Shown here: piece after piece, positions 1 through 43,243 of the stretch
Position numbering within the stretch: position 1 is the stretch's first letter
How the letters are laid out: every line of letters starts with the position of its first letter
Source of the DNA: Capsulimonadaceae bacterium
GTDB taxonomy: Bacteria > Armatimonadota > Armatimonadia > Armatimonadales > Capsulimonadaceae
Length of the DNA stretch: 64,000 bases
Assembly: GCA_965215505.1 (NCBI GenBank)
Contig: OZ244065.1
Span: forward strand, 4,701,835-4,765,834
Reading direction: 5' to 3'
The notes under the pieces: generated by a model
Seen by the model: the letters and a program-made list of their open reading frames with translations, nothing else
Databases searched by the model: none
Told to the model about the DNA's origin: nothing
Translations under genes and position numbers: made by a program

Positions 1-1684
1 TCGCCGTGCCGGGGTCCCAGGCGTCCGTGTCGTTTCAATTCCAGCTTGGTTCTATTAGAAGCTTGCCCGTAGTGCTGTGCGTGGTCTACACACGAGGGCA
101 GGTTTCAATTCCAGCTTGGTTCTATTAGAAGCTGGCAGAACACCGGTTGGTTCACTGCTCCAGGTCCTCCACGTTTCAATTCCAGCTTGGTTCTATTAGA
201 AGGCTTCGGCCCGCTGACCGGCGCGGGCAGCCTCAGCGTGTTTCAATTCCAGCTTGGTTCTATTAGAAGCCTCCCACCCGTCCAACTCCCTCCCCCGGAC
301 GCTCATGTTTCAATTCCAGCTTGGTTCTATTAGAAGCGGCACGGGGAGCGGCCCCAATGAACACCCCCCGCAAGTTTCAATTCCAGCTTGGTTCTATTAG
401 AAGAAGCACACCGCCGAGATGCTCCGCGCCCGCTGCATCTGTTTCAATTCCAGCTTGGTTCTATTAGAAGCTCGTGATCTGTAAAGCAACTGAGGGCAGC
501 AACTTCAGTTTCAATTCCAGCTTGGTTCTATTAGAAGAACGTGGTGCTTTACCACTTGTTGGCCTAGATGTATGTTTCAATTCCAGCTTGGTTCTATTAG
601 AAGCTCATAAGTTCTTGTCAAGACCTTTCAAGGTTTATTTGTTTCAATTCCAGCTTGGTTCTATTAGAAGGCAACGTGCGCGGCTTGACTAGGATCATTG
701 GCTTGTTGGTTTCAATTCCAGCTTGGTTCTATTAGAAGTAGAGGTCGCCCGTGTCGGGCCGCACGTCTAGCATCTCGGTTTCAATTCCAGCTTGGTTCTA
801 TTAGAAGGGGTGAGGTAGGTCGGCACGCCCGCCGCGTTTAGCCGCGTTTCAATTCCAGCTTGGTTCTATTAGAAGACGGCGCAGAAGGTCGCCGCACTGT
901 CCTCGTACCTGCTCGTTTCAATTCCAGCTTGGTTCTATTAGAAGTTTCCCCGTGACCCGCGCCCGTGTCCTTTTCTCAGAGTTTCAATTCCAGCTTGGTT
1001 CTATTAGAAGTCTCCGTCGCCTTCGGGCGCGCGGGCGGCCTCCCCCTCAGTTTCAATTCCAGCTTGGTTCTATTAGAAGGAGCATCAATCGTGTCTGTAA
1101 CCATGACGCCCATTATAGTTTCAATTCCAGCTTGGTTCTATTAGAAGCCGATCAACGATGACAACACAATCCGTCAGTCTCTCATGCGTTTCAATTCCAG
1201 CTTGGTTCTATTAGAAGTGGTGGATCAATCAGCAGAAGCAACAGGTTGAGAAGTTTCAATTCCAGCTTGGTTCTATTAGAAGCGGGGTCTATGCTCCGTT
1301 TCCAGTGGGCGAGAGCATGTTTCAATTCCAGCTTGGTTCTATTAGAAGGACGGAACGGTCGTGGAGCGCCACCTGTTCAATCACGAGTTTCAATTCCAGC
1401 TTGGTTCTATTAGAAGTTTGCCAACGTACTGAAAACGTCCCGGTTCGGCGTGTTTCAATTCCAGCTTGGTTCTATTAGAAGGCGAGTGCGCCACCACGCG
1501 CCGCGCGTCCCGGTCCTCGTTTCAATTCCAGCTTGGTTCTATTAGAAGGCTGGGGCCGCCCCTGATCAACATCTCCCAGGGCCTCTGTTTCAATTCCAGC
1601 TTGGTTCTATTAGAAGTGGGCCTGCTCAACGTCTATGTGGCGTTCTACATCTATGTTTCAATTCCAGCTTGGTTCTATTAGAAG
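1..1684 (-). CRISPR. CRISPR array with 25 identical 30-bp repeats (GTTTCAATTCCAGCTTGGTTCTATTAGAAG on the + strand). It has 24 complete spacers of 35-41 bp plus a partial spacer at 1-31, and it continues beyond the window edge.
   Basis: Repeat starts were read at 32,102,173,240,307,374,441,508,574,641,709,778,846,915,981,1050,1118,1188,1253,1319,1387,1452,1519,1587,1655. The reverse complement ends in ATTGAAAC, the usual 8-nt crRNA 5' handle of Cas6-processed repeats. Transcription is therefore inferred on the - strand, from the cas2-proximal side. Confidence 0.97.
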
Positions 1685-1888
1685 ACCACATCTGGTAGTG
1701 GTCGGTCATTGCCGTACTAGGTCTGTGAAGGCGAAACGCTGACACAGCCATTATGTCACAGGAATGGGATTTTTCACCCGCTTTTTGGGGGAAAGAGTCG
1801 TCGGCCTTCTCTGTAGCAGAGGGCTACCGGGGGCCGACGACACGCGGATGGAGGCCAAAACGAGCGAACGGATTGGGTGAGGATCGGG
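1685..1888 (-). promoter_or_regulatory. CRISPR leader and cas2-array spacer region
   Basis: This is a 204-bp non-coding stretch between the cas2 stop and the last repeat. It contains a 10-bp-stem hairpin (GTCGTCGGCC at 1797-1806, GGCCGACGAC at 1832-1841) that could terminate the cas operon. No promoter hexamers could be assigned confidently. Confidence 0.6.
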
Positions 1889-2203: not shown

Positions 2204-3427
2204 TCACCACCAGGCGCGGAAGGCGCGGTAAGTTTCCGCGCCGGTCAGGTGCCGGATCAGCTTGTAGCACTCCAGGCGGATCAGGTGCCGGTACGAGACC
2301 GAACGCCCCAGGCGACGGTGCTTGATGGTGGTCGCCAGGCGGTCCTCCAGAGCGCCCAGGAACAGCTTCTTGCCCGCGTCGGTCAGGAAGCAGCCGTCGA
2401 GGCTGCGGTCGAAGTGGCTGTCCTTGAGCTGGCCCGTGTTGATCAGGCGGAAGATGGCCCGGTCCACGATCAGAGGCTTGAAGATCTCCGACAGGTCCAG
2501 AGCCAGCGAGAAGCGGCGCGCGCCCGGCTCGTGCAGGTAGGAGATGGTGGGCGTAAGCTGCGTGCGGTAGATCTCGCCCAGGCAAACGGTGTAGAGGTGT
2601 GAGTTGCCGAAGGAGATCAGCGCGTTGACCTCGTTGTCGGGCGGGCGGCGGACGCGCCGCTCGAACGTCCATCCTTCGCTGAGGATGTGCCGCCACGCCT
2701 GGTAGTAACGCTCGCGCATCTTGCCCTCGATGCCGCGCAACATGTTGATCTCGGCCTGCGCCCCGATCAGGTCGGACAGGCCGCCGATGACGTCGCGCAG
2801 GGTGCCGAGTGGGCTGGCCGCCTCGTCCCAGACGACCGCGCCGACAAGCGGGTCCGCCTCTCCGTCCTCCGGCGCTTCGCCTTCGGGTGACACGGCCTCT
2901 TGGGGCGGCGCAGGCGCGGCGGCGACAGCGTCTACGGCCGCCTCGGCGTCCGGGTCCGTGGGAACCCCGCTGCTCGCCCCGCCCTCGCTGCTGGGGGCCT
3001 CTTCCGCCCCGATCTCCCCCGCCGGCTCGCGCTCGTCGCCCGCGCCGCCCTTGCGCTTCTCGTAGTAGGCGATGTTGCGGAGGAGCGAATGGGCGGCCCC
3101 GCGCACCAGTTCACGCGCGAGCATCAGGCGCCGATCCATGTCCGCGTAGTGGCTGACCTGGTGGACGAGCAGGTAGCCGGAGTGCAGGTATTCGCGCGGA
3201 TAGTAGGAGCCGGCGTAGAAGCCGTAGTAGTTGAAGACGTGCAGGGGGATCTTCTTTTGCGACAGGAAGTTGAGTAGCTTGGTGTTCAGGTCCACCTCGC
3301 CGTAGAGGTACAGGCTCTCCACGTCCTCGACCGGCACGGGCCGCTTCTGGCCGGCCTCGTTCTCGATGTAGAGCGTGTTGGCCTCGCGCTTGACGCGCCC
3401 GTTGGACAGCACATAGTAGTTCTTCAT
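2204..3427 (-). CDS. cas1: CRISPR-associated endonuclease Cas1 (type I-B-like) with an internal acidic Ala/Pro/Glu-rich insertion of about 80 aa
   Basis: The product is 407 aa. It has a conserved Cas1 N-terminus (MKNYYVLSNGRVKRE.NTLY) and C-terminal motifs (RRPPDNEVNALISFGNSHLY, ISYLHEPG). It is longer than the usual ~330 aa because of a low-complexity block. Confidence 0.93.
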   Translation of the reverse strand: MKNYYVLSNGRVKREANTLYIENEAGQKRPVPVEDVESLYLYGEVDLNTKLLNFLSQKKIPLHVFNYYGFYAGSYYPREYLHSGYLLVHQVSHYADMDRRLMLARELVRGAAHSLLRNIAYYEKRKGGAGDEREPAGEIGAEEAPSSEGGASSGVPTDPDAEAAVDAVAAAPAPPQEAVSPEGEAPEDGEADPLVGAVVWDEAASPLGTLRDVIGGLSDLIGAQAEINMLRGIEGKMRERYYQAWRHILSEGWTFERRVRRPPDNEVNALISFGNSHLYTVCLGEIYRTQLTPTISYLHEPGARRFSLALDLSEIFKPLIVDRAIFRLINTGQLKDSHFDRSLDGCFLTDAGKKLFLGALEDRLATTIKHRRLGRSVSYRHLIRLECYKLIRHLTGAETYRAFRAWW

Positions 3428-3458: not shown

Positions 3459-4001
3459 TTACCCCCAGCAGAGGTCCTGATACGAACACTTCTTGCAGAC
3501 CGCCATCGGCTTGGGCACGACCGGCGGCGCGGGCCGCTCCCGCGTCGCGCGCACCCCTTCGATGACCCGTTCCACCTCGGCCTCCAGGTCGGGCGTCAGG
3601 GTCACGTCCTCGCGGCGGCGCTGCTTGGGGTAGTCAATGACGCCCGTCGTCTCGATGCCCTTCTCGTGCTTGAGGTAATACAGGTAGTAGAGGAGCTGGA
3701 AGAGGGTGGCGCGCTGCCCGCCCTGGCTCTTCTTGACCTCGTGGACGGCCCCGCTGTCGGTGAAGTCCAGGCGTAGGAGGCCGTCAATGAGGACATCCTT
3801 GCGGCTCTTGTCCTGATAGCTCTCGCTATGCACGAGCTGCCCCAGGGCGACGTTCTCGGCCCCGACGCCGCCGGTGACATGCTCCTGCTCCATGCCGTGC
3901 GAGAACCACCACAGCTTGCGCGGGCAGAGGACGAAGTAGTGGACCTCCGTCCCGCCGATGCGGAGGGCCTGAAGGGAGTCTTGATCTTGCTCGACCGACA
4001 T
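3459..4001 (-). CDS. cas4: CRISPR-associated exonuclease Cas4 (RecB-like nuclease with Fe-S cysteines)
   Basis: The product is 180 aa. It has an N-terminal Cys (FVLCPRKLWW) and a C-terminal C..C..C cluster (AVCKKCSYQDLC). It sits between cas3 and cas1. GC-rich. Confidence 0.9.
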   Translation of the reverse strand: MSVEQDQDSLQALRIGGTEVHYFVLCPRKLWWFSHGMEQEHVTGGVGAENVALGQLVHSESYQDKSRKDVLIDGLLRLDFTDSGAVHEVKKSQGGQRATLFQLLYYLYYLKHEKGIETTGVIDYPKQRRREDVTLTPDLEAEVERVIEGVRATRERPAPPVVPKPMAVCKKCSYQDLCWG

Positions 4002-4010
4002 GGTATTTCC

Positions 4011-6476
4011 TCAGATGAAATTTGAACCGGGAGCGATACCAATTCCGCGCGTGAACGTATAGTCGCACTCGTTACCCAACTTGCGAATGCCAAAAATCTC
4101 ATTCCAAAAGGCGGGAGCGACGTCTTCTTCTTTGATCCGCAATTGTACAATGTGTTCAGCCATGCTGCGTAAATGTGCTTCTACAGCGACCTTTAGCTTC
4201 TTAAAGTCTTTGTAGTTGCCACGTTTACGTTTTGCCTCTGTCAATGACTGTGCCAGTATTTCTAACTGTTCAAAGTCTGTATCTGCTGGTCCTTGTGGGA
4301 TGTAATAGCGAAATTGCTTGCCAAAGTCTTGTTCATCAATGAGACGGAACCGACCCATGTTCTCAAACGCTGCTTCGTTAATACAGCGTATAAGATTTCC
4401 TTTGTCATAATCTTTGCCAACTTTTGGATGCTCACCGATAGAAAGGTTGTTATTGACCAGTTCAAAAAAGGCTTGCTGAATACCTAGCAAATCCCGCTCG
4501 CGAACGATTTCCGGCAGATTAGTACGGGAGAAATCTAAATACCAGGCTGGCTCACTTTTCTGATAAATCAATGCAGCGCGTGATTTTTTGTTCTCATTCT
4601 TTAATTCAAAGACAAACACGATGCCTTGTTTGCTATTGCCATCGTGATCCTGTAGCAATCCGTTACGATTACAACGCCCTGCGGCTTGGATAAGATTCGG
4701 TAAAGGACACAGGTCTCGAAAGACAACTGGAAAATCAATATCTACGCCCGCTTCGATCAGTTGTGTTGTAATCAGAACAATCCTTTCGCCCTTATCAAGT
4801 ACCTGTTTAGCTCTCGCTATTTTCCTGCGGCGGTCGTGTGGTGTGAAAAGTGTGCTCAACAGCATGATACACTCATCTTCTTCGGTAGTACTGAGAATAT
4901 CAAAGAGATTTTTGGTGTCGTCAATTGTGTTCAAGATAATAAGACATGACGATTTTTGTTCGCTAACCTTTTCTGCTAGTTTTTCAAGAGAAAACTCGGT
5001 ATCAAGCATGCGTTGAATTTTGTAACGGTCAAAAACTGGACTGCCATAGTACACAGATGCATTTACAAGTTCTTGGGGCTTGACATAAGAAGTGAAAAGC
5101 CTCTCAGGACATTCCTGGGGATCGCGTGTTGCTTTTGAAGCTATCTCCAGAGCTGGCATAGTAGCTGTAGAAATAATAGCGTAAGAGTTGAATTTGCGAC
5201 AAAAGGCATCAAGAAATGCCGTAAAAAAGACATACAAACGCGGGGGTAACGCTTGTATTTCATCAACGAGGAAAATAGTGTTGGAAAAATTGGGCAATCG
5301 CAACAAAGTTGCGTTACGGTTGCTCATAAACGTCTCGAATAGTTGCACGAATGTCGTAATGATGAAAGGGGCATCAAATGTGTCTTGGGCAAAACTCTCT
5401 TGCAACAGCGCATCGATCTTTGCTGGATCGTTATCCAGTTCTTCCTGCAACTTCTCCATGCGCTCATTGTGCGCCTTTGAGTCGATCCGTAGAACAACAT
5501 CTTCTTCAGGATTGTCAGTATTCAGAATATCCCGACAAACCCTTTCTACTTGTTCTGTGATCGAGAGAAAAGGAAGGCCATAAATAATGCCGAGATTGTT
5601 GTTCTTCTGAAGAATTTCATTGGCAAGTGCTAACAGCATCATTGTCTTGCCAGATCCCGTCGGCGAAGTCAATGAGAATACTCGCTGGTCTTTATCAAGC
5701 GCCGATTTGAGAGATGTGACAGCCTCTTCCCGAATTTGAGTACGCACTTTATTAAGTTCGCTATCCATCGTGAAGGATGCTAGGGTTTTTGTGAGTGCGG
5801 TGTCAACGCGGGCTGCGAAAGAGTCGGTGTAGAATGCTCTCCTGAACTCTTTGTTGTCGCCAGCATCCCGCTTGTCAGACTCAATGAGACAGGAGAAAGC
5901 GAATTGTGTTTCCAATACGAAATCAAGTGGGGCAGTCGCAATAACGCTTTCGCTGCACTTGCTAAAATCTTTTAACAGATTTATAGTGGGCTTTTCAAAA
6001 AGATCAAATGGCTTATGATTGGTTAGGCTTTGCAGTGATTGCGATGCTCGCAAAAAATCTGATGCCGGTAAATAGGGCTGCGTTTTAAGAAACTCTACCA
6101 TTCGGTCACGCTCATTGATACCGATGATACTTTCAGTGAAGTTAGTGAGGTTTCCATGATGGCGTGCCGTTAAAGCGATAATGCTGAAAATCTGAGAAGC
6201 AGTTAGCCCAAGCGGATTGTCCCTGTTCTTTGCAAGGAAGCAAAGGAAAGCATAGGCAGAGAGACAAGCATGATTTGAGTACGCACCCGCAGTTGGCGGC
6301 ATATTGCCAAGCTTCTCCTGAAAGAACGGGTTGAGCTTGCCTACATCGTGAAATATGGCGGCAACTTCTGCAATCCAAAGATTCGTGCGTAGCTTTGTGC
6401 CGTCTATGACCCCCTGAGTATGGATGTGAAGCAACTTGTGCGGGTGGGAACGAAAGGCTTCTAGATCAAACTCCAT
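4011..6476 (-). CDS. cas3: Cas3 fused HD nuclease and DEAD/DEAH helicase
   Basis: The product is 821 aa. It has an HD motif (AAIFHDVGKLNPFFQ), Walker A (SPTGSGKT), a DExx box (FLVDEIQA) and helicase C motifs. Visibly AT-rich codon usage. Confidence 0.93.
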   Translation of the reverse strand: MEFDLEAFRSHPHKLLHIHTQGVIDGTKLRTNLWIAEVAAIFHDVGKLNPFFQEKLGNMPPTAGAYSNHACLSAYAFLCFLAKNRDNPLGLTASQIFSIIALTARHHGNLTNFTESIIGINERDRMVEFLKTQPYLPASDFLRASQSLQSLTNHKPFDLFEKPTINLLKDFSKCSESVIATAPLDFVLETQFAFSCLIESDKRDAGDNKEFRRAFYTDSFAARVDTALTKTLASFTMDSELNKVRTQIREEAVTSLKSALDKDQRVFSLTSPTGSGKTMMLLALANEILQKNNNLGIIYGLPFLSITEQVERVCRDILNTDNPEEDVVLRIDSKAHNERMEKLQEELDNDPAKIDALLQESFAQDTFDAPFIITTFVQLFETFMSNRNATLLRLPNFSNTIFLVDEIQALPPRLYVFFTAFLDAFCRKFNSYAIISTATMPALEIASKATRDPQECPERLFTSYVKPQELVNASVYYGSPVFDRYKIQRMLDTEFSLEKLAEKVSEQKSSCLIILNTIDDTKNLFDILSTTEEDECIMLLSTLFTPHDRRRKIARAKQVLDKGERIVLITTQLIEAGVDIDFPVVFRDLCPLPNLIQAAGRCNRNGLLQDHDGNSKQGIVFVFELKNENKKSRAALIYQKSEPAWYLDFSRTNLPEIVRERDLLGIQQAFFELVNNNLSIGEHPKVGKDYDKGNLIRCINEAAFENMGRFRLIDEQDFGKQFRYYIPQGPADTDFEQLEILAQSLTEAKRKRGNYKDFKKLKVAVEAHLRSMAEHIVQLRIKEEDVAPAFWNEIFGIRKLGNECDYTFTRGIGIAPGSNFI

Positions 6477-7162
6477 GCACTTCCTCCTGAAAAACGGTAA
6501 TGTTCGCCGGTCACTGCTATTTCTTGATTTGCAGTTGGATAGATGACGTCAACATATCGTTCCGGCAAATTCCAGAAGTCGTTGTTCTGATAGGTCGGAA
6601 TGCGCTCAAATCCAACGCGGAAGTTGCTAAGGTCAACCCGCTCCCGGTCCAGCTTAAATCGCCGAGGCACAAAGCCTTGTGTGCTAAAGCTTCCTTCTGA
6701 ATGGCTGAACTCACCCTGTTCCAGTGGAATAATTTCCGCAGGGCAATTGTGAAGACCGAAAACCGGTGTGTAATACGACTCACTATTCTGTATGAGTTGA
6801 GTGAACTCCTGAAATAGTCCTTCTGACCGTTCATTCGCGAGCGCAAGTGCGACAGTAAAGTCTGGGTTCTTCAGAAACTCCATCTGCTTTGGAGCCTTCT
6901 CAAACAGATTTTCCGCACGACGCAGAGTAAATGCCCACGACTCTTTTCGCACAGTTCCGCTTACCTGGACTCCGTAAAGTAAATCCTCACTTAGTACTGG
7001 AAATAAGGAACGCATGGCCTCCCGCTCTTGACCTGTGACCGCTCCGATCAACCCTATAAAAGCGGTTTTCGTGATAAAGTCATGTGTCAGCGGATTGTTG
7101 TTAGTTTCCGGCTTTTTAAAGTGTGCCCACCTACCGCGTAGGCGCAACGTCAGCCCTTTCAT
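6461..7162 (-). CDS. cas5: Cas5 (type I-B Cascade subunit)
   Basis: The 233-aa product has a Cas5-type N-terminus (MKGLTLRLRGRWAHFKKPETNNNPLTHDFITKTAFIGLIGAVTG). It lies between cas7 and cas3 and overlaps cas3 by 16 nt. AT-rich. Confidence 0.85.
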   Translation of the reverse strand: MKGLTLRLRGRWAHFKKPETNNNPLTHDFITKTAFIGLIGAVTGQEREAMRSLFPVLSEDLLYGVQVSGTVRKESWAFTLRRAENLFEKAPKQMEFLKNPDFTVALALANERSEGLFQEFTQLIQNSESYYTPVFGLHNCPAEIIPLEQGEFSHSEGSFSTQGFVPRRFKLDRERVDLSNFRVGFERIPTYQNNDFWNLPERYVDVIYPTANQEIAVTGEHYRFSGGSAWSLI

Positions 7163-7164
7163 TT

Positions 7165-8097
7165 TTATCCCTCGGCTTCCAAGAACGTCATCGTGTTGAA
7201 TTTGGGCATCGCCACGAGTTGTTCAGAAAGGCTGGGAACTTCTGTATAGAAGTTGACTGCCTTCACAACAGGCGATTGAGTAAGTTCCAGAAACCGTGAA
7301 AAGTCCAGAGCGTAGTCGTCGAAAGAGCGCAATTGCTCATCTCTCTTGTCCGATTTGAGGGCGATAGAGCGATCTACGCCATAGAGCTTTTTTGTCGCGC
7401 CACTGTAAACGATTTGCAGCAGCAACAAAGAGTTTTGATTTGACTTGGTGCGAGTATTCGCGTTGTTGATGCTCTCCCACAGAGCCTGAAACATCAGTCG
7501 AATGTCGTCTTCAGTGAGGCCGGTATGACGGGCAGAAAAAGGATTGATCCACCCATGAATTTGATTTACGACGTATGGCACCACAGTTGTCGTGCCTATC
7601 GCACCACGTTCTTTGTCTGTGCTAGATGCAAAGACGGAAGTGTTTTGGTGCATGCGTAATTCGACTGCGTTAAGAGAGGGGTTTAGCAGGGCGAACTGGA
7701 CCGGCCCGGTGAGATTGACGGCATTTTTTTCTTGTGTAAGAATTCCTCCGAATAGACGTACATCAGTGAGGGATTTTAGGATTGCTAGAGTGTCCTTATC
7801 CTCCGCGATCTTTTTGAGCGCATTGAAGCGGGCAGCGGCCCCCGACTCTGCATCACCTTTTGCGTTCTTTTCGACACTGCTCCGATCATTGAGGACATAG
7901 ACAGAGTTGCGGTCCATGTCGGCAATGTAGTCACGGATGAAGCGCTTGATACGAACATCACTGACGAGGGCCTTTTTAGTTTCCTCATCGTAGCGCTGCT
8001 CACCCGTGAATGGGTCGCCGTTTGGGATCGAGTAGGTACTTTCGTACAAGAAGAGGATTTCTGACTTATCGACAGGCAGATTTTGCATATTGTTCAT
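7165..8097 (-). CDS. cas7: Cas7 (type I-B/I-C Csh2/DevR-like backbone subunit)
   Basis: The 310-aa product has a characteristic N-terminus (ILFLYESTYSIPNGDP...RYDEETKKALVSDVRIKRFIRDY). It sits between cas8b and cas5. AT-rich. Confidence 0.88.
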   Translation of the reverse strand: MNNMQNLPVDKSEILFLYESTYSIPNGDPFTGEQRYDEETKKALVSDVRIKRFIRDYIADMDRNSVYVLNDRSSVEKNAKGDAESGAAARFNALKKIAEDKDTLAILKSLTDVRLFGGILTQEKNAVNLTGPVQFALLNPSLNAVELRMHQNTSVFASSTDKERGAIGTTTVVPYVVNQIHGWINPFSARHTGLTEDDIRLMFQALWESINNANTRTKSNQNSLLLLQIVYSGATKKLYGVDRSIALKSDKRDEQLRSFDDYALDFSRFLELTQSPVVKAVNFYTEVPSLSEQLVAMPKFNTMTFLEAEG

Positions 8098-8119
8098 TGG
8101 TGTTTGCTCCCTCCCAGGA

Positions 8120-9937
8120 TTATTCTTCGTCTTGGCCTTCTGCGGCGGTCAGGTCTGGCGCTTTAGAACCGTCATCAGCTTTCTGATATGGTTGGAAATA
8201 GCTCTCAAAGAACCCGAAAGCGCAAAAGTCGCTGTCGTACTTTTCGACGCTCTCATCGAAGCTGAGAATTTTTTCTGCTAATTCACTTGAAGTGCGGAAT
8301 GTGAACTTAGTACGATCATGCATCACGAGTTTTTGGTTGATCTCGTTGTGCAATTTGACTACATCAGGCAATGTCGAGATGCGACGGGACAGCAGCCCAA
8401 CGTAGTTCTTCTCGAAAGATTTGATGGGGCTTTTAGGTCCAGCGAATTGGCGGCCCATCTTGCCAAGAAGTGAGCCAACTTGATAGCTTTGAGAACCCTG
8501 TATGTCCATGAGGCGGTCCCCTTCGTAATTTTGCAACAGTATCAGAAAGTAGAAATCGTATTTGAACAGGTTAAAACCAGTTCCACCGTTGCGAATATTG
8601 AACTGTGTTTTTTCGATAAGCGCAGGCAGCAGAACAGGATCGTCGTAATAGGTTTCGCTATAAATTTGCGGCAAGACTTTAAACAGATGGTTCTGGTACT
8701 TCTTTTTCGCCCGCGTCATGTCTCCTAGTATGTTTAGGAATGAACGAGTAATATCTAGCGGAGCAAGATCCTTCTTGAATAGAAGCTGTCTTTCTTGATT
8801 CAACTTGTTGCGGATATGACGTACTTTCTTACTGAGATCAGTGAGCCGACTTTTTTCCAGGCCGGAGATTTCGAGCAAATCTGAATCCGGCGTAGAAGGA
8901 CCACTTCCTGCCTTGCTGAAGATAAAGTCAAACTGAACGATGTTATCATCAACATCATCCATGACGGCTGCAAAGAGCTTATCTAGGTTTGTTTCATCAC
9001 CAGAAATCTCAGGTGAGGGAGCCGCAAGATTTTCCTCGCTTTGCTCCGCTCGGCTCAACGACTTCCGCTCGAAAAACGTCTCAATCTGCTTCGCTGTTAG
9101 GCGGCTGGTGCTGTCTTGTTCATTGCCACGGGGCAGGACGATGATCTTGACGTCCCGTTCGCGAATGACAGCTCTCTGCGAGTAATCGATAGCATAAAGC
9201 AGATTCAAAACATCGTCAAATGAGCGAAAGATGCGACTCTTATACTGGCTCTTGCTATCAAACCCAGGAGCATTATTCTTTCCCGAAGCAAGCGTTTTAT
9301 AAAGAGCCTTTTTGAGAACATAACCGTTCGCGATCTCTGAATACTCGACGAACTCATCAAGCAGTTTTTCATTGATGAGCTTCATCTCGCCTTCAAACTC
9401 ATACCAACTTTTGCCATCAAAATCAAAGTGCAAAAAGATGCTAGGCTTGTCGTGAAGAAGCGCCTCCAAAGCTTCAATGTTGGCCTTTAGCGAACTGCGA
9501 AACTTTTCAATATGAGAATCTGCAAACGCGGCGGCATCTTGTTGGCCGCGCACGAAAGAATTGACTTGGAAGCCCTTTGCCGCCACGGATGGATCACCAA
9601 GAACGAAGTTCGTTTCAGTGATGCTGATGTCGCCCGTTTTGTTATTCGTGACCGTTTGATAGCATATGTCGCCAAAGATATACTTCTTCATCGAGTCCGC
9701 ATCAGAGGTCTTATAGTTGAGATAAAACAGACGGTTCTTGATGAAATCCTCGTCTGTCAGAGGCACCCTGTTGTTGAGGTCGAACGTAAAATCAGGCCGT
9801 ACAGGAATGGAGTAGTAGCTGATTGGCTGTTTCTCAGTGGTTTGTGGTGCTTGCTTAACATACCGATGATGCTTGAGACCACCAGGGCCTTTTACATTGC
9901 GGAAAGTTTCGCCGATCTTCAAAAGCGTTTCTAACAT
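8120..9937 (-). CDS. cas8b: Cas8b-like large subunit of type I-B Cascade
   Basis: The product is 605 aa and is the first gene of the cas8-cas7-cas5-cas3 block. Size, position and the lysine/asparagine-rich composition fit Cas8b. The family call rests on context more than on motifs I can name. Confidence 0.75.
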   Translation of the reverse strand: MLETLLKIGETFRNVKGPGGLKHHRYVKQAPQTTEKQPISYYSIPVRPDFTFDLNNRVPLTDEDFIKNRLFYLNYKTSDADSMKKYIFGDICYQTVTNNKTGDISITETNFVLGDPSVAAKGFQVNSFVRGQQDAAAFADSHIEKFRSSLKANIEALEALLHDKPSIFLHFDFDGKSWYEFEGEMKLINEKLLDEFVEYSEIANGYVLKKALYKTLASGKNNAPGFDSKSQYKSRIFRSFDDVLNLLYAIDYSQRAVIRERDVKIIVLPRGNEQDSTSRLTAKQIETFFERKSLSRAEQSEENLAAPSPEISGDETNLDKLFAAVMDDVDDNIVQFDFIFSKAGSGPSTPDSDLLEISGLEKSRLTDLSKKVRHIRNKLNQERQLLFKKDLAPLDITRSFLNILGDMTRAKKKYQNHLFKVLPQIYSETYYDDPVLLPALIEKTQFNIRNGGTGFNLFKYDFYFLILLQNYEGDRLMDIQGSQSYQVGSLLGKMGRQFAGPKSPIKSFEKNYVGLLSRRISTLPDVVKLHNEINQKLVMHDRTKFTFRTSSELAEKILSFDESVEKYDSDFCAFGFFESYFQPYQKADDGSKAPDLTAAEGQDEE

Positions 9938-10011
9938 GGCATTTCCTGTTACCGCATTCTTGCGATGCGCTCGTCATAGAACGGAAGAAGCAGAAGTGCT
10001 CAGTGAAGATG

Positions 10012-10440
10012 AGAGATTGTGACCTGCGGCCCTAATCTCCGGCGAGGCACAAGTGCCAGGCGTTGCTATCTGTCCACAACACCATGTAGCCGAAGCAGGT
10101 CGTTTGGCGACCATTCGGGCCGCAGGAACATTTGGGAGAATTATAGCACAGGAAGCAGGGAAACAGCAAAGGGAGAGGGCGACCTGCGGCCCTATCTTCA
10201 GCGAGGCCCTGGGCCAGACGTTGTAACGCCGTGTGACCGAAGAAAGACGTGAAGCGACCGTTCGAGCCGCAGGGACATTTACAGGCGCAGTATACCCCAA
10301 AGAACAGGAGCGCGGGTGGGGCGAAGGGACGACCTGCGATCCTATCTCCCGCGCGAGGCGGGAGCAGGCCGCGAACGCGACTTTTCGGAGTGCAGGGACG
10401 TTTGTCCTCGCGGTATGCCCTAAAGAATCCGCATTGTTCC
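10012..10440. repeat. Three tandem, diverged units of 150-160 bp immediately upstream of cas8b
   Basis: The anchor GACCTGCGGCCCT occurs at 10021 and 10181, and as GACCTGCGATCCT at 10331. Each is complementary to a downstream partner: GGGCCGCAGG at 10117-10126, GCCGCAGG at 10266-10273, GCAGG at 10392-10396. On the - strand each unit carries a -10-like hexamer: TATAAT (10145-10140), TATACT (10294-10289), degenerate in unit 3. Confidence 0.85.
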
Positions 10441-10543: not shown

Positions 10544-10783
10544 ATGACGGTCTTGCTGTCTTTAACAACGGAACAGGAACAAAAACTGACGCAAGCGGCC
10601 CAGGCGCGGGGTCTGGATGCCGACCGTCTCTTACACGAGGTGCTGGATACGGCTCTCGCGCAATTAGAACCCGCGTCGGTGCCCACGCCCAAACGGATGC
10701 CGGACCTTCACTTCGGCCAAACCTGGGTTAGTGACGATTTTGATGCGCCTCTGCCCGATAGTTTCTGGCTAGGTGAAGAATGA
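10544..10783 (+). CDS. Type II antitoxin (VapB-like, DUF2281-like C-terminus)
   Basis: The product is 79 aa. Its stop overlaps the downstream PIN toxin start in an ATGA arrangement. The C-terminal DDFDAPLPDSFW motif is typical of this antitoxin class. Confidence 0.75.
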   Translation: MTVLLSLTTEQEQKLTQAAQARGLDADRLLHEVLDTALAQLEPASVPTPKRMPDLHFGQTWVSDDFDAPLPDSFWLGEE

Positions 10784-11166
10784 ACCTCCTCCTGGACACC
10801 CACACATTTCTTTGGTGGGACAACGGTTCCGTCAATCTCTCGCCCCGCGTGCTTGCGCTCTGCAACGACCCGACCGTGATTCTGTATCTGAGCCTGGTCA
10901 GTCTCTGGGAGCTTCAGATCAAGAGCGGCCTGGGCAAACTGTCTTTGCGCCTGCCGCTACGAGCGCTTGTGGCGGACCATCAGCAAAAGAATGGGATGCG
11001 ACTGCTGCCGATCACCCTCGACCATCTCCTCGCGCTGGACGCTCTGCCACACCATCATAAAGACCCGTTCGACCGTCTTCTGATCGCGCAGGCGCAGGTG
11101 GAAGGCATGTCCTTAGCCAGCATGGATCATGTTTTTGCCGGCTACCCTGTTTCCCTTATTTGGTGA
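10780..11166 (+). CDS. vapC: PIN-domain type II toxin (VapC family)
   Basis: The product is 128 aa. It has an N-terminal LLLDTHTFLWW acidic motif and C-terminal DPFDRLLIAQA, both typical of PIN toxins. Confidence 0.85.
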   Translation: MNLLLDTHTFLWWDNGSVNLSPRVLALCNDPTVILYLSLVSLWELQIKSGLGKLSLRLPLRALVADHQQKNGMRLLPITLDHLLALDALPHHHKDPFDRLLIAQAQVEGMSLASMDHVFAGYPVSLIW

Positions 11167-11918
11167 CCTTTGATGTCCACCATGCCGAATCCCGCCGCGT
11201 TCTTCTCGCCGAAGCCGGTTTCGTATCCCACTCGCATCAGGTCCACGGAACCGGAAACGGTGAACGGGCAGAAGGCACCGACGATTCGGATGTTCTTGAA
11301 TGTCGTCAGCTTGGTCCCGCCGCCCGTCCGGGCCAGGTAGGCGGGGCCGAAGGCCAGCGCGAAGCGGTCGTCGTCGGGCAGGTCCCCATAAACCAGGCGG
11401 TGCTTGCGGAGCAGGTTGCGGCGCACGGCCTCGGAGAAAGCCTCCCCGTCACTGGGCCGCAGGTAGCGCGTCCCTCCGTCCGGCAGCGGCAGGGCGGCGA
11501 CAACCGGCGACAGGCAGGTGAAGGCGGTCGTCTCGGACAGGATGGGGGCGGCCAGCGTCTCGATCTGCGTGATGGGGAGTGTCGCCGGGCCGACCCGGAG
11601 CGCCCCCGCCGCCAGCAGGCCCGTGGCGAGGTTCGTCAGGAACGGCTCCACCGGCGAGGCGATCAGCCATTCCAGCGGGCCGGGCGCGAAGCGCAGCATG
11701 TCGCCGTCCACGGTGCGCCGCGTGCCCCGCAGCCAGGAGAACGTGAACAGCTTGAAGCGCCGCCCGTCCTCATCCGCGTAACCGTCGTCGTGCAGGAAGC
11801 GGGCGTAGTCGGCGTCCGAGGCCGCCAGGAGTCCGTAGACGGCAGCAGTCAACCACTCTTGGTAGTTGATCGGCAGCCGGGTCCCCGTTGAGTTGTCTAG
11901 ACAAACGCGCAGGCGCAT
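11142..11918 (-). CDS. cas6: Cas6 CRISPR RNA endoribonuclease
   Basis: The product is 258 aa. It has a RAMP-type N-terminus (MRLRVCL...LPINYQEWL) and a C-terminal glycine-rich loop (GFGEKNAAGFGMV). It is GC-rich and its 3' end overlaps vapC convergently by 25 nt. Confidence 0.85.
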   Translation of the reverse strand: MRLRVCLDNSTGTRLPINYQEWLTAAVYGLLAASDADYARFLHDDGYADEDGRRFKLFTFSWLRGTRRTVDGDMLRFAPGPLEWLIASPVEPFLTNLATGLLAAGALRVGPATLPITQIETLAAPILSETTAFTCLSPVVAALPLPDGGTRYLRPSDGEAFSEAVRRNLLRKHRLVYGDLPDDDRFALAFGPAYLARTGGGTKLTTFKNIRIVGAFCPFTVSGSVDLMRVGYETGFGEKNAAGFGMVDIKGHQIRETG

Positions 11919-12002: not shown

Positions 12003-13157
12003 TCACGACGCGGCGTAAATCTCGCGGAGTTTTTTCGCCTCCGCCGCCAGCTCCCGGCGCAGGGCAGGCGGCTCCAGGACCTCGACTTCGGCCCCGTAAC
12101 CCAGCAGCCAGCGCTTCACCTCCGCCGTCCCTGCCAGGGCCAGCGTCATCTCCAGGCTGCCGTCCGCCGCTTCCGCGCACTGCTGGCTGGGGTGGTAGCG
12201 CCGCTCGCGTATCCAGCGGGCCTGGTAGGGCGAGAAGCGCACCCGCACCGTCACCAGCGCTTCCCCGTGATGCAGCGCGAAGCCGTGACTCAGGTAGGCT
12301 TCCACGTCGAAATCGGCGTCACGCGCGAAGGCATCTCCGGGCGGGAGCAGCGCCCACTCGCGGACGCGCCCCAGGAAGAAGTCGCGGAAGCCCTGCCGCC
12401 ACTCGCACCAGGCGATCAGGTACGGCTCGCCGCGCCAGTGGTGCAGGTGGTACGGCTGCACGACCCGCTCGTTCACGTCGTCGCGGTGGGCGCTGTAGTA
12501 GAGGAGTTGGAGACGCCGCCGCTCCTCCAGCCCCCGGCGGCAGTCGTCCAGCAGAGCCGGGGACGCGCCCACGGCGCTCTGGGCCTGGATGGCACCGCCC
12601 ATGCTCTCCGCCGCCGTCTCTGCTAAAGATGACAGGAAGGGCTGGAGGCGCTGGGCCAAGGCGCTGACCGGCCCGGCGTCCGGCGCGGCCAGGTACTCGC
12701 GGGCGGCCAGGAGGGACCGGCGCAGGGTGGCGGCCTCCCGCTCGGTGAGGGCGAGGAACGGGAGCAGGTAGGTCGGGTCGGTGTAGGCCCACCCGCCGCG
12801 CCGCCGGTCGTAGACGAGGGGTGCGCCGAGGTTGTCCGTCAGGTGGCGGTGGTCGGCGAAGGCCGTGCGGCGGGAGACGCCGAACTGTTGGCAGACGGCC
12901 TCGGCGTTGGGGTAGTGCCGGCTGCGGATCTGGCTGTCGATCCAGTAAAGGCGTTCGATCTGAGACAAGGGACACTCGCTCCATGCCGTGAAAAGCCGTA
13001 AAGGCGGTTTCTTGCTCTCTGTTCCATAGAGGCCCGGCTTTTTCCTGTCTGTGTCAAGGAACGGAGAACGTAAGTGCCATTCAATCGTCCGTTGCCTCGG
13101 TCTTTGCTTCCCCTGCCCATTGCCGCGAGGGGACGTCCGTCGCCCGGACCCAGCCAC
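12003..13157 (-). CDS. HTH plus WYL-domain transcriptional regulator (probable CRISPR-Cas regulator)
   Basis: It has an N-terminal HTH (SQIERLYWIDSQIRSRHYPNAEAVCQQFGVSRRTAFADHRHL) and a WYL-like core (VVQPYHLHHWRGEPYLIAWC). It lies directly upstream of cas6 on the same strand. The ORF-maximal GTG start at 13157 is probably too far upstream; the true start is likely near 12968-13070. Confidence 0.8.
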   Translation of the reverse strand: MAGSGRRTSPRGNGQGKQRPRQRTIEWHLRSPFLDTDRKKPGLYGTESKKPPLRLFTAWSECPLSQIERLYWIDSQIRSRHYPNAEAVCQQFGVSRRTAFADHRHLTDNLGAPLVYDRRRGGWAYTDPTYLLPFLALTEREAATLRRSLLAAREYLAAPDAGPVSALAQRLQPFLSSLAETAAESMGGAIQAQSAVGASPALLDDCRRGLEERRRLQLLYYSAHRDDVNERVVQPYHLHHWRGEPYLIAWCEWRQGFRDFFLGRVREWALLPPGDAFARDADFDVEAYLSHGFALHHGEALVTVRVRFSPYQARWIRERRYHPSQQCAEAADGSLEMTLALAGTAEVKRWLLGYGAEVEVLEPPALRRELAAEAKKLREIYAAS

Positions 13158-13718: not shown

Positions 13719-15296
13719 TTAATGACGCTTACGCAGTTCTTCAACCACATCCGCTATGTTGAAGGGCAGATTCAGGATTTTGCAAGCCCTTTGGTATCTC
13801 TTCCTGAAATTGTCGGCTTTGCTCTCTATCTTTCCTGACTCTTGTAGGAACTTGTAAGCGCCTTGGTAAGAGGGCCAGCTTTTTTGCTTGATGTAAATGT
13901 GTAAGACGTCCCTCACCAGCCGGAGGCTGTCTTGGTTGGAGATTTTGTACCTGGTAGCTCCATGCGCTTTCCTCATAAGCGATGCTTGTTCCCTAAGATA
14001 GATCTCCCTGATGGTATCTGCCGTGACCCAGGAGTCAGCCTCAATCGTGATGCTGTCATGCGAAGCCTTCCCGTTCATCAGGCACTCAGCGGCCACACTG
14101 GCTGCATCCGAAGCGTCCATATTCACCACAATGCTTTTGGAAGTGCGGACACTCACCGGTCTATAATCCGCCTTGTCGGTCAGGACGAACATAGCTTGCT
14201 CCCGGCGTCCACCTGGGATCGCGTTCATGACGATCCGCGAGATGAGAAGGTCATAAAGCTCCTCCACCACTGAGCTCGTAAAGAAGCGGGTAAACCTGCC
14301 CGGCGTGTTTTCATTTTCACTCCCTTCGAGATCTGCTTCCCAGAAAAAAGGGTCACGGAGCAGTTTTACGGGTTTATGGTCCGACACCAGTGTCTTCTCA
14401 ATGATGCAACTTCTGCTTCCTGTAGCCCCCGTGCTGCCCGAGGTTACTTCAATGCTGACCGTATACTTGTACCAACGATGTACCTTCCCCAAAGAACCAT
14501 AATGAACAACGGTTGAAGGATAAGTAACTGTCTGACCCTTCAGCCGCTTCCTCTGTTCAGGCGTAACCACTTCTACGGCTTGATTTAGTACCTTCGCCTT
14601 ATGATCCGTGACAGAGGCACCTAACCCCTCGATGTCTGTGAAAGAAAGATACCGGAGAGCGGGGGAGGAGAGAAAAGCCCGCGCCTGGGCTGTGGACAAA
14701 AGGCCTGAAGGCAGGTATTTCTCTCGAAACACTTGCACCTGCGGTAAGAACCCGCAAAGCACACCCCGATGCATTGAAATTGCTTCTATGCCTTCCCGCT
14801 CTTGGGGGCTGAACACTTCTAGACCAACAGGGATCTTCTCTTGCTGAAGAGGCTCCTTAGAAAGCTCAACACTCTCAGCCTGTTGACGGGAACTTTGTTG
14901 TGGCAGTGACCGAGGAGCCTTAGAACACAAGTCTCTTGCTATTTTCCTTTCGAGGTCGTTTTTTGCAACCCCTTGAAGAGCTGATTCAAAACTCTCCCAT
15001 TGCCTGGCTTCTTCCCTTTTCTCCCTCGTTAGTTGTCCCTTCACTCGTTCAACTATTTCCGCTTTTTCGCGTTCATCTAGGCCATCGTGGACCCCTCCAA
15101 TATCGTAATCTGCCGATAATCGTACAAGAAAATACAAAGTCGCTGTCGTAAACTCGACCAAATTTAATCTTTCCCTGAGCCAGTCAAGTGAAGAAATCAG
15201 TTGCTCCTCATCCTCTTCCATTGCCCTGTCCATATCTTCAAAGTCAGACATATAAGCCTCTCTAAATGTCTTGTGGATAATAGTACATGTCGTCAA
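13719..15296 (-). CDS. Hypothetical protein with no recognisable family (525 aa from the ORF-maximal start; 510 aa from the SD-preceded ATG at 15251)
   Basis: This is a long uninterrupted ORF in the most AT-rich part of the element. GAGAGG lies 6 nt upstream of the ATG at 15251. The N-terminus is acidic and the product has no transmembrane segments. Confidence 0.7.
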   Translation of the reverse strand: MTTCTIIHKTFREAYMSDFEDMDRAMEEDEEQLISSLDWLRERLNLVEFTTATLYFLVRLSADYDIGGVHDGLDEREKAEIVERVKGQLTREKREEARQWESFESALQGVAKNDLERKIARDLCSKAPRSLPQQSSRQQAESVELSKEPLQQEKIPVGLEVFSPQEREGIEAISMHRGVLCGFLPQVQVFREKYLPSGLLSTAQARAFLSSPALRYLSFTDIEGLGASVTDHKAKVLNQAVEVVTPEQRKRLKGQTVTYPSTVVHYGSLGKVHRWYKYTVSIEVTSGSTGATGSRSCIIEKTLVSDHKPVKLLRDPFFWEADLEGSENENTPGRFTRFFTSSVVEELYDLLISRIVMNAIPGGRREQAMFVLTDKADYRPVSVRTSKSIVVNMDASDAASVAAECLMNGKASHDSITIEADSWVTADTIREIYLREQASLMRKAHGATRYKISNQDSLRLVRDVLHIYIKQKSWPSYQGAYKFLQESGKIESKADNFRKRYQRACKILNLPFNIADVVEELRKRH

Positions 15297-15380
15297 CGGG
15301 ACGCGGAGCTAAGAGGGGCCACAATCAGCCTTTGAGTCCAATCTGCCACCGGAACGAACAACCTACAGAGGAGGTAACGC

Positions 15381-15512
15381 ATGAAGCCTACGACACCGCA
15401 CAGCCAACCCACGCCTAACCCGCATTGGGTCATGTTCTGGCAAAAAGTTCGAGCCGCAGCGGATGAGTTACGCCGCCTCGAAGCCGAGCAGGCTCAGGGC
15501 GACCAGCTTTAG
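15381..15512 (+). CDS. Small hypothetical protein (43 aa)
   Basis: Translated by hand as MKPTTPHSQPTPNPHWVMFWQKVRAAADELRRLEAEQAQGDQL. A strong SD (GAGGAGG) lies 7 nt upstream. It is too short for the ORF track. Confidence 0.45.
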   Translation: MKPTTPHSQPTPNPHWVMFWQKVRAAADELRRLEAEQAQGDQL

Positions 15513-15535
15513 ATCGAGATCACAAGGAGATCACA

Positions 15536-15706
15536 ATGAACAGTGTTCCATTCAATCGCCCCACAGGCAGCCCCGGCCCGCGCCGCCCCGTTCTGCCGCC
15601 CCGTCTCTTTCTCGACTTGCCCTTACCTGGCCTGGGGCAAACGAGTATTACCGGGGCGCAAACGCCACCGGCGGGCGTCACGGAGTGGGAGAGGGGAAAA
15701 GCCTGA
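15536..15706 (+). CDS. Small hypothetical protein (56 aa) translationally coupled to rep
   Basis: Translated by hand as MNSVPFNRPTGSPGPRRPVLPPRLFLDLPLPGLGQTSITGAQTPPAGVTEWERGKA. An AAGGAG SD lies upstream. Its stop overlaps the rep ATG (TGATG). Confidence 0.45.
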   Translation: MNSVPFNRPTGSPGPRRPVLPPRLFLDLPLPGLGQTSITGAQTPPAGVTEWERGKA

Positions 15707-16629: not shown

Positions 16630-16734
16630 AGGCATGACAGACCAGCGCGGTCAATCGGAGCCGCCTCGCGGCCCCTTGACTTCAATTCCAGCCGCCGCCA
16701 CAACCTTGGGGAGCGCACTGGCAGCAGGACGGTT

Positions 16735-17019
16735 TTAGCTGCCTGTGCGTTTCCCGGCCACGGCGAGTGCAGCGGAGGATGTCTCCTGCAACGACGCCAC
16801 ATCGCGCTTTCGCCCGCGCCCCGGCCCGCGCGGCTTGATGGTACGCTTGATGCCGTTGTAACTGCCCGGCTGGTAAGCATCGAGGTCAGCCGCGCGCAGT
16901 GCAATCCGATCCAGGACGCGCACGGAAGGCAGCAGGCCCCGCTCGATTGCCTTATAAATGGTGGGCAGCGAGACGCCCTTAATCTCGGCGGCCTTCTTCG
17001 GCGTAAGGTACTCGTCCAT
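16735..17019 (-). CDS. Excisionase-family / MerR-like HTH DNA-binding protein (candidate recombination directionality factor)
   Basis: The sequence MDEYLTPKKAAEIKGVSLPTIYKAIERGLLP is a classic excisionase-type HTH. AGGAG lies upstream of the ATG at 17019. The C-terminal tail is basic. Confidence 0.75.
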   Translation of the reverse strand: MDEYLTPKKAAEIKGVSLPTIYKAIERGLLPSVRVLDRIALRAADLDAYQPGSYNGIKRTIKPRGPGRGRKRDVASLQETSSAALAVAGKRTGS

Positions 17020-17148
17020 GTGTCTCCTGATGCTCGTTTGCCGTGGCAGTTCCTGCTTGTTGTCTAACAGTGAATACATTATGACACAAAGAACGCTGGA
17101 AGTCCAAACTGTTCTCCTTTCAATATTTAGGAGGAATATCTAGGCCAC

Positions 17149-17183
17149 TTGATATTTAATGTACAAAACAGTATACTTATAAT
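17149..17183 (+). promoter_or_regulatory. Sigma70-like promoter upstream of the serine recombinase
   Basis: TTGATA (17149-17154) is followed by a 17-nt spacer and TATACT (17172-17177), with an adjacent TATAAT (17178-17183). It sits in an AT-rich patch about 415 nt upstream of the recombinase start. Confidence 0.5.
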
Positions 17184-41977: not shown

Positions 41978-41980
41978 AAC

Positions 41981-43228: not shown

Positions 43229-43243
43229 AACACGGGTGTTAGC

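Follow-up and report, generated by a model that had tools for sequence, protein, structure and literature searches.

AT-rich type I-B effector genes within a GC-rich CRISPR-Cas frame of a Capsulimonadaceae bacterium

A stretch of 64,000 nucleotides (the window) of a Capsulimonadaceae soil bacterium (assembly GCA_965215505.1, contig OZ244065.1, positions 4,701,835 to 4,765,834) carries a locus of CRISPR (short palindromic repeats, clustered and regularly interspaced) and cas genes which is complete and probably an active type I-B (Hmari/Csh-type) system of a GC-rich Armatimonadota genome. Its effector genes cas8b-cas7-cas5-cas3 are AT-rich and lie between GC-rich genes, and relatives with near-identical flanking genes carry unrelated effector genes at the same place. 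The explanation that we consider likely is that the locus consists of a conserved frame and an exchangeable middle. The frame, which has host composition, would begin with the WYL regulator gene and cas6, continue through an intergenic region that contains toxin-antitoxin genes as well as DUF3800-IX-like RNA, and finish with cas4-cas1-cas2, leader and array; the middle would be one of several alternative cassettes that use the same slot. Cassettes would be swapped in situ, probably by homologous recombination in the conserved flanks: at one end in the 3' end of cas6 or in the RNA region, at the opposite end in cas4 (from about codon 8). They would behave as accessory-like DNA, horizontally mobile even between phyla and with a lower GC equilibrium than the frame, and all of them would use the same CRISPR RNA (crRNA) made by Cas6.

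Composition and borders of the effector cassette

The GC content of the remaining window (17-64 kb) is 0.675. Between approximately positions 4000 and 10000, the sliding GC content drops to 0.42-0.50, compared with 0.63-0.74 on either side. A preliminary description of this DNA had claimed an AT-rich cas8b-cas7-cas5-cas3 block between GC-rich cas6, WYL and cas4-cas1-cas2 genes, and the values of GC and of GC at third codon positions (GC3) agree with it. In the block (4011-9937, GC3 0.44-0.56), GC and GC3 are 0.442 and 0.444 for cas3 (4011-6476), 0.483 and 0.491 for cas5 (6461-7162), 0.487 and 0.559 for cas7 (7165-8097), and 0.457 and 0.521 for cas8b (8120-9937). The frame genes show GC3 values of 0.86-0.92, as in the rest of the window: 0.920 for cas2 (1889-2152), 0.914 for cas1 (2204-3427), 0.906 for cas4 (3459-4001), 0.873 for cas6 (11142-11918) and 0.857 for the WYL gene (12003-13157). 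Most other coding-like open reading frames (ORFs) of the window range between 0.83 and 0.97, and values under 0.6 were found only in the four effector genes and in one unrelated ORF (13719-15296); the composition of the cassette is thus atypical in relation to host genes, whose GC3 is around 0.9. Effector proteins are also rich in Lys, Asn, Ile and Phe, as had been stated: the summed share of these residues and Tyr is 25-31%, versus 13-21% in the other proteins.

The switch in composition is as abrupt as previously described. The cas3 stop and the cas4 start are separated by 9 nt (4002-4010), the gap given in the preliminary description, and GC3 jumps from 0.47 in the final 40 codons of cas3 to 0.80, and then 1.0, over the opening cas4 blocks of 20 codons. 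Change-points of GC were best placed at position 3997, which is 4 nt away from the ATG of cas4, and at approximately 10145. At the right cassette junction (3980-4010, minus strand), cassette-specific sequence runs from the 9-nt spacer, which holds the ribosome-binding site, through the ATG of cas4 to about codon 7; in an alignment of 12 loci, homology to loci with other cassettes begins around codon 8 of cas4, at GAYTCCCTCAAAGCCCTCCGCATCGG, and blastn end points fall at 3966-3986. The ribosome-binding site, the ATG and the initial 4-10 codons of cas4 come with each cassette, and the reading frame of cas4 is intact across the junction. The left junction (10013/10014) is positioned directly downstream of a conserved element that measures about 115 nt. 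At this point homology is lost to L005, L018 and L009 (loci other than that of the window are named by L numbers), three loci with other cassettes, whereas it continues in L086 and L087, in which the cassette is that of the window and the cassette-specific 5' untranslated stretch (9938-10013, minus strand) is also kept. In L002, L013 and L015, the cassette directly abuts the cas6 stop. Junction positions coincide across loci.

Sharp switches at gene boundaries resemble a mis-join, and many of the related records are metagenome assemblies, as would be expected if an AT-rich block had been misjoined into a GC-rich locus by an assembly or binning chimera. However, the window lies within a contig of 6,177,771 bp, the cas4 reading frame is not interrupted at the junction, and independent contigs from other samples show the same junctions, from cas6 through the cassette to cas4 in L087 and L088 and over the whole locus in L089, L098, L111 and L021. 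The split is therefore not an assembly artefact, and we give the chimera practically no credence.

Cassettes, frame genes and repeat in related loci

Cas1 of the window has a dense series of homologues with 80-95% identity, and the named ones all belong to Armatimonadota; the closest in the genome collection are encoded by uncultured Armatimonadales, Capsulimonadaceae and Chthonomonadaceae genomes. Cas7 homologues outside its own 90% cluster are at most 71% identical, and the named ones include members of Acidobacteriota (Blastocatellia, Aridibacter and Pyrinomonadaceae), Capsulimonadaceae (Armatimonadota) and Prosthecochloris (Chlorobi). In the loci whose Cas1 is 84-92% identical to that of the window, sequence identities are 80-91% for Cas4, 84-93% for Cas2, 75-88% for Cas6 and, where present, 78-89% for the WYL protein. 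The interval between cas6 and cas4 of these loci is occupied by unrelated gene sets, and their effector proteins show no detectable match to those of the window, or less than 35% identity over short segments. Synteny is maintained on both sides (WYL-cas6 and cas4-cas1-cas2-array) in L002, L005, L006 and L009, and in L007 without a WYL match. These data support the claims that the history of the effector block differs from that of cas6, the WYL gene and cas4-cas1-cas2, and that effector genes were replaced while cas6 and the adaptation genes were retained.

The slot holds at least six unrelated cassettes: type I-B Hmari, Tneap and Pging-like, two other variants, and an I-A-like set. The arrangement cas5p-csp2-devR-cas3 was found in L001/L006 (Cas1 90%) and L004/L007 (Cas1 86%), and cas5b-cas3-cas8b-cas7b, according to PADLOC, in L002 (Cas1 92%), L008 and L096. 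L005 (Cas1 88%) contains a gene for a 538-residue protein (orf538) followed by devR-cas5-cas3. A type I-A-like Cas8a-Cas7a-Cas5a set is present in L097 (Cas1 86%) and, broken by frameshifts, in L009; L013 and L107 show Tneap-type I-B genes. Hmari-type cassettes resembling that of the window are present in L087 and L088 (92.9% DNA identity over window positions 3924-10197), L086 (84.4% DNA identity), L089 (Cas7 70% and Cas1 72% identical to the window) and L021 (Cas7 65%, Cas1 62-65%), and also in L098, L111 and L118.

Some loci (L010, L011, L023 and L025) show extra genes between cas4 and cas1, and those of L010 (5165-9988) include the type III protein Cas10; this interval therefore seems to be another site of the frame that can house effector genes. 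In two long-read assemblies, L009 (3171-9440) and L092, cas genes are split into many short ORFs, with devR in two parts and a Cas3-like fusion of 1112 residues as examples. This breakage could be due to sequencing frameshifts or to real decay, and it was not used as evidence of function. L086-L088 are Logan short-read contigs with the window's cassette type; the three end 78 nt into cas4, and L087 and L088 begin within the last 135-140 nt of cas6. These end points are presumably assembly-graph breaks, where strains share the frame and differ between its parts, which suggests that strains with the same frame and different cassettes co-occur in SRR22405827, SRR22405875 and SRR22405885.

The CRISPR array (1-1684, minus strand) contains 25 identical repeats of 30 nt at 32-1684 and 24 unique spacers of 35-41 nt, and it continues past the left end of the window, where positions 1-31 are a partial spacer. 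In the crRNA sense the repeat is CTTCTAATAGAACCAAGCTGGAATTGAAAC, with 11 G+C of 30 as counted before, and ends in ATTGAAAC, as in Hmari/Csh type I-B systems. In Haloferax, the corresponding end of the repeat gives the 8-nt 5' handle of the crRNA. The repeat of L003, L005, L007 and L009 (CTTTTAATAGAACCAGGCTGGAATTGAAAC in the crRNA sense) differs from it at two of 30 positions, and this 28/30-identical repeat adjoins frames with Pging-like, DevR-type and I-A-like cassettes; arrays of the relatives reach 80-142 repeats within the fetched stretches. Because a near-identical repeat is found beside other cassette types, it belongs with cas6 and cas1-cas2 and not with the effector block. The preliminary description had matched the AT-rich repeat to the interference module and suggested that the array was perhaps replaced too, and this distribution supports neither idea. 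Hmari loci of Acidobacteriota show related AT-rich repeats, ending in AATCGAACCAnnnTGGGATTGAAAC in L093 and in AATCGAACCAnnnTGGAATTGAAAC in L094, regardless of the host GC (53% or 37%), and AT-richness is thus a property of the repeat family. Since the frame is conserved together with the repeat throughout the lineage, Cas6, Cas1-Cas2-Cas4 and the repeat form a co-evolved set, which indirectly points to Cas6 and the integrase as long-standing partners of this repeat. Spacers common to different arrays, which would be a memory kept across a swap, were not found, with only the 24 leader-proximal spacers contributed by the window.

Replacement of effector genes in situ has been described before, and the locus is therefore an instance of a known process. 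Hudaiberdiev et al. (2017, BMC Evol Biol, PMC5704561, Figs 4-5) reported related cas4 genes with different effector modules, and effector genes replaced in situ with untouched adaptation genes and boundaries at nucleotide level, including cases within subtype I-B. Koonin and Makarova (2019, PMC6452270) summarized effector replacement and "attractor" genes, and suggested anti-CRISPR pressure as a driver. As in PMC5704561, the loci compared here show related cas4-cas1-cas2, cas6 and repeat, unrelated effectors between syntenic flanks, nucleotide-level boundaries, and exchanges both within I-B and between I-A and I-B. Unlike those cases, the exchangeable block has a GC3 0.35-0.45 lower than the frame, with an apparent compositional equilibrium and a lineage-wide contrast, and the frame further contains a WYL regulator, often accompanied by toxin-antitoxin genes as well as DUF3800-IX-like RNA elements. 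The term "GC content" is absent from the main text of PMC5704561, and no report of a systematic difference in composition between effector and adaptation genes was found in the literature that could be searched. The size and sharpness of the contrast, the apparent equilibrium of the cassette and the hint of a generally higher AT content in effector than in adaptation genes go beyond that literature. These loci also form a natural series, in which one Cas6, one repeat and one Cas1-Cas2-Cas4 set occur with at least six effector cassettes. It makes testable the interchangeability of the crRNA handle between Cascade variants, and the compatibility, after a swap, of the protospacer adjacent motif (PAM) used by Cas4 in acquisition with the PAM used by Cas8 in interference.

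Composition, age and exchange of the cassettes

Every cassette examined in the slot is AT-richer than its frame. GC3 values of frame and cassette are 0.89-0.96 and 0.39-0.47 in L018, 0.87-0.93 and 0.56-0.63 in L089, and 0.85-0.94 and 0.52-0.72 in L006. Loci of Acidobacteriota show the same split: L093 has a cassette GC3 of 0.48-0.56, versus 0.78 for cas4 and 0.70 for cas1, and L094 of 0.29-0.37, versus 0.42 and 0.45. A survey of other phyla covered 35 loci, fetched by Cas1 similarity and with cas3 within 6 kb of cas1; in these loci, which are not phylogenetically independent, GC3 is lower in cas3 than in cas1 in 28 of 35, with means of 0.39 and 0.48 (Wilcoxon p = 5.7e-6). Two loci, L101 (320-5937, GC3 0.64-0.87) and L118 (2253-8376, GC3 0.62-0.74), differ from all the rest in having fairly GC-rich cassettes in GC-rich frames. 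These cassettes may be long-resident, and they indicate that GC enrichment of cassettes can happen.

The direction of substitutions in the cassette was analyzed by parsimony between the window and L087, with L086 as the only outgroup. Polarised third-position changes are balanced, with 126 from AT to GC and 122 from GC to AT on 978 AT and 988 GC sites, and the equilibrium GC3 implied for the cassette is 0.51, the same as its present value. Balanced substitutions mean that no amelioration took place over about 15% of third-position divergence. The same parsimony on frame genes, a saturated and biased control, gave a per-site AT-to-GC bias of 1.6-2.0, above that of the cassette. Taken together, the lineage-wide split and the balanced substitutions indicate that the contrast marks two evolutionary regimes and not a datable recent import. 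Of the recent effector replacement put forward in the preliminary description, the replacement thus stands. Its recency does not, given that the split is found in every relative, in Acidobacteriota and in other phyla, and that substitutions are balanced. The old and stable architecture named there as the contrary outcome is present only in part: the composition split is lineage-wide, whereas gene order and content of the middle block vary among relatives.

A single recent import of the effector block, perhaps with the array, from an AT-rich donor would leave AT-richness as a signature not yet ameliorated. The strongly atypical codons and amino acids and the spread of cassette homologues over several phyla agree with such an import, and the GC-richer L101 and L118 would fit varied residence times, in which case the cassette of the window would be among the young ones. 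Nevertheless, we regard it as improbable: the same cassette lineage occupies the same slot in other GC-rich frames (93% DNA identity in L087, 84% in L086 and 70% Cas7 identity in L089) and maintains a GC3 of 0.44-0.63 in L086, L087 and L089, the polarised substitutions are not GC-ward, the other cassette types of the lineage are equally AT-rich, and the repeat belongs to the frame. Amelioration is reportedly the model that Lawrence and Ochman proposed for recently acquired islands. Of the features of that model, the cassette shows the atypical composition; it shows neither directional substitutions towards the host composition nor absence from close relatives together with a near-identical copy in a donor whose composition matches. 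No AT-rich donor was found, and the nearest copies (93 and 84% DNA identity) are in the same slot, beside cas6 and cas4 ends homologous to the frame of the window. Searches of the cassette against plasmids gave only two cas3 matches of 52-59 nt, with no sign of a plasmid-borne donor.

A different possibility, tenable but rather unlikely in our view, is that the cassettes are old balanced alternatives within the lineage, which stay AT-rich in situ because fixation follows another regime in them. Either GC-biased gene conversion or selection in favour of GC would act on the shared, recombining frame and rarely on a cassette that most partners lack, or AT-richness would be selected itself, for low expression or silencing. 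Long-term residence agrees with the coincidence of composition and homology boundaries within a few nucleotides, with balanced substitutions at a GC3 around 0.5, with the independence of cassette and frame GC3 (as in L018) and with a split that holds in three host-GC regimes and in other phyla. However, the disagreement between cassette and frame across phyla denotes real horizontal movement, and L101 and L118 show that cassettes can turn GC-rich. Moreover, this possibility overlaps the explanation by a conserved frame with exchangeable cassettes, and differs from it only in the cause of AT-richness.

Accessory and mobile DNA is said to be AT-richer than the core genome, a rule attributed to Rocha and Danchin in 2002 and to Daubin and colleagues in 2003. 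With the cassette as accessory and the frame as core DNA, the contrast goes in the usual direction at host GC contents of 37%, 53% and 67%; here, however, the two regimes meet inside one operon, a few nucleotides from a start codon. The cause of AT-richness could be turnover of accessory DNA, missing GC-biased conversion in the cassette, or selection. A large GC3 difference within an operon is not necessarily the mark of a recent transfer, and the higher AT content of effector genes relative to adaptation genes, seen in most related loci that were surveyed, bears on the compositional detection of horizontal gene transfer in defence systems.

Frame and cassette proteins show different histories across phyla. 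In comparison with the window, the Acidobacteriota loci L093 and L094 show identities of 46 and 45% for Cas8b, 65 and 66% for Cas7, 55 and 55% for Cas5, and 46 and 48% for Cas3, and the Armatimonadota locus L021 shows 43, 65, 56 and 47% for the same proteins. The cassette proteins of these three loci are thus equally distant from the window, but the frame proteins are not: Cas6, Cas4 and Cas2 identities are 30, 44 and 53% in L093, 22, 44 and 46% in L094, and 49, 70 and 68% in L021. This disagreement implies real horizontal movement. A similar conflict is seen in L098, whose Cas1 is 82% identical to that of the window and whose Cas8b, Cas7 and Cas3 match L021 better than the window. Among Pging-like loci, cassette and frame identities are roughly parallel, but not in detail: of L014 and L018, the former is nearer to L006 in three of the four proteins of the cassette, and the latter in Cas6 and Cas4. 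A general co-divergence of cassette and frame was considered and rejected on account of the L014/L018 and L098 conflicts.

The clearest sign of recent exchange, and apparently a direct one, comes from L002 and L096. Their cassette DNA is 93-100% identical, mostly 97-100%, while the flanks are 76-90% (WYL-cas6) and 89-95% (cas4-cas1-cas2) identical, and identity shifts in the last 180 nt of cas6, approximately, and at the cas7b/cas4 junction. A cassette more alike than its flanks suggests that the exchange took place through homologous recombination in these conserved regions. For the window and L087, identities are 92.9% in the cassette and 86% at the 3' end of cas6.

Several observations weigh against frequent exchange of cassettes with their own lower GC equilibrium. 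When loci with one cassette type are compared, the identities of cassette and frame are roughly parallel (Cas1 84% and Cas7 88% between L006 and L007; Cas1 72% and Cas7 70% between the window and L089), so that some cassette-frame pairs may have been co-inherited for long and exchange may be less common than the diversity would imply. For the cassette of the window, a donor-recipient pair in which both sides have full frames was not found, as L086-L088 end within cas4. Protospacers, from which the PAM could be deduced, were found neither in the rest of the window nor in GenBank phages nor in viral contigs, the last searched with three spacer cores. Finally, the frame control of the substitution analysis is weak (parsimony on saturated, GC-skewed sites) and implies a GC3 of 0.62-0.67 for genes with values around 0.9. 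This low equilibrium is most likely the result of parsimony bias and saturation, and the control was used only to indicate a stronger GC-ward tendency in the frame than in the cassette, and not as a calibrated standard.

A broader proposal joins four elements. The cas6-cas4 slot would be a dedicated exchange platform of the whole phylum, with one chassis of Cas6, repeat and adaptation genes serving at least six structurally different Cascade-Cas3 cassettes; the cassettes would be a balanced polymorphism swapped by recombination, perhaps under anti-CRISPR pressure; they would have a separate, AT-richer equilibrium in a genome with GC3 0.9, GC-biased conversion or selection acting only on the frame; and the DUF3800-IX-like RNAs at the left junction, with or without a DUF3800 gene, would act in regulation or exchange. 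As a whole we hold this speculative combination to be quite unlikely.

Genes, RNA elements and surroundings of the locus

Genes were identified by profile searches with Pfam, NCBIfam and PADLOC, and the cas genes are all encoded on the minus strand. In the cassette, cas8b encodes a large subunit of 605 residues (PADLOC Cas8b1, 347 bits, E 3e-104) which no Pfam or NCBIfam model matched. The cas7/csh2 product has 310 residues (TIGR02590, 184 bits, cutoff 171.55), and Cas5 has 233 residues, with 43 bits against Pfam Cas_Cas5d (cutoff 23), 86 bits against PADLOC Cas5b and 74.7 bits against TIGR02592 (Cas5h), the latter under its cutoff of 97. Cas3 has 821 residues and contains HD and helicase domains (PADLOC Cas3b, 420 bits; cas3_core 135.8, cutoff 102.45; cas3_HD 53.3, cutoff 43.45).

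In the frame, Cas4 has 180 residues, of which those from about codon 8 on are frame sequence (TIGR00372, 79.2 bits, above cutoff), and Cas2 has 87 residues (TIGR01573, 41.9 bits, above cutoff) and the 84-93% identity in close relatives given above. Cas1, with 407 residues, belongs to the type I-B/HMARI family (TIGR03641, 437.6 bits, cutoff 304.1). Between its N-terminal and catalytic parts, around residues 125-215, it shows a low-complexity insert of about 85 residues rich in Ala, Glu, Pro and Gly, and the Pfam match to the protein falls in two stretches. Near homologues of Cas1, the named ones from Armatimonadota, have a similar length (387-445 residues). Cas6 has 258 residues (TIGR01877, 109.9 bits, cutoff 58.65), and the relatives with 75-88% identity in this protein share the repeat. 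The WYL gene, an ORF of 384 codons, encodes Pfam WYL and WCX domains; as homologues measure 319-337 residues, its true start is perhaps about 60 codons further in. The leader, between cas2 and the first repeat (1685-1888, minus strand), contains one promoter-like site (1777-1750, GTGAAA-16-CATAAT with TG), a consensus match only.

The gene order (cas6-cas8b-cas7-cas5-cas3-cas4-cas1-cas2) and the families, with Cas8b, Csh2, Cas5, a fused HD-helicase Cas3 and an HMARI-family Cas1, are those of the Hmari/Csh variant of type I-B. This variant has been studied in Haloferax volcanii. The locus of the window differs from the H. volcanii system in its bacterial genome with 67% GC, in the divergent large subunit, and in the toxin-antitoxin pair and RNA elements between cas6 and cas8b.

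Three tandem structured-RNA-like copies are located between cas6 and cas8b (10014-10133, 10177-10283 and 10323-10403, minus strand) and belong to the frame. One of them (10328-10397) matches the Rfam family RF02968 (DUF3800-IX) with 38.6 bits, over the gathering score of 36.8. The two longer copies are under this threshold, yet they align with it, have the same ends and keep the outer helix, a long helix with compensatory changes between copies; the fold z-score of the third copy is -4.5. Matches to the family are also found in L018 (1284-1350), L087 (170-239) and L086 (62-128), and a DUF3800 gene, encoding an RNase-H-fold protein, adjoins the element in L001/L006 and L089. According to tblastn, no DUF3800 gene is present in the 64-kb window. 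RNA motifs associated with DUF3800 were described by Weinberg et al. (2017, PMC5737381), and some V-A2 and VI-F loci have accessory genes for DUF3800 proteins with the RNase-H fold (PMC10910872, PMC12669027); by comparison, the locus of the window is of type I and shows three tandem RNA copies. A candidate extended -10 element, TGTGCTATAAT (TGcTATAAT, 10140-10150, minus strand), was noted from sequence and alignment 7 nt upstream of the last RNA copy. Relatives show TACAAT or TATACT at this position, and a two-hexamer promoter scan did not call the element.

A VapBC-like pair (10544-11166, plus strand) consists of an antitoxin-like ORF of 79 residues (10544-10783) and a PIN toxin (10780-11166; Pfam PIN, E 1.1e-10). 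It is convergent with cas6, which it overlaps by 25 nt at the cas6 stop, and it is found at the same place in L005 (PIN 95%), L009 and L089, but not in L002, L006 and L087.

Upstream of the WYL gene, the unrelated AT-rich ORF (13719-15296, 525 residues, GC3 0.53) shows no Pfam, NCBIfam or PADLOC match. It is followed by genes for a Rep_trans/MobT-like protein (15463-16629), an HTH_17 protein (16735-17079) and a large serine recombinase (17581-19332), and by a dnaN-like ORF of 258 residues (19296-20072) without a separate N-terminal domain. This set of genes (13719-20072) suggests an integrated mobilisable element directly beside the CRISPR locus, possibly inserted in dnaN. Elsewhere in the window, and unrelated to the CRISPR finding, several 21-nt tandem repeats lie at 42011-42320, in a GC-rich stretch with overlapping ORFs (41798-43945).

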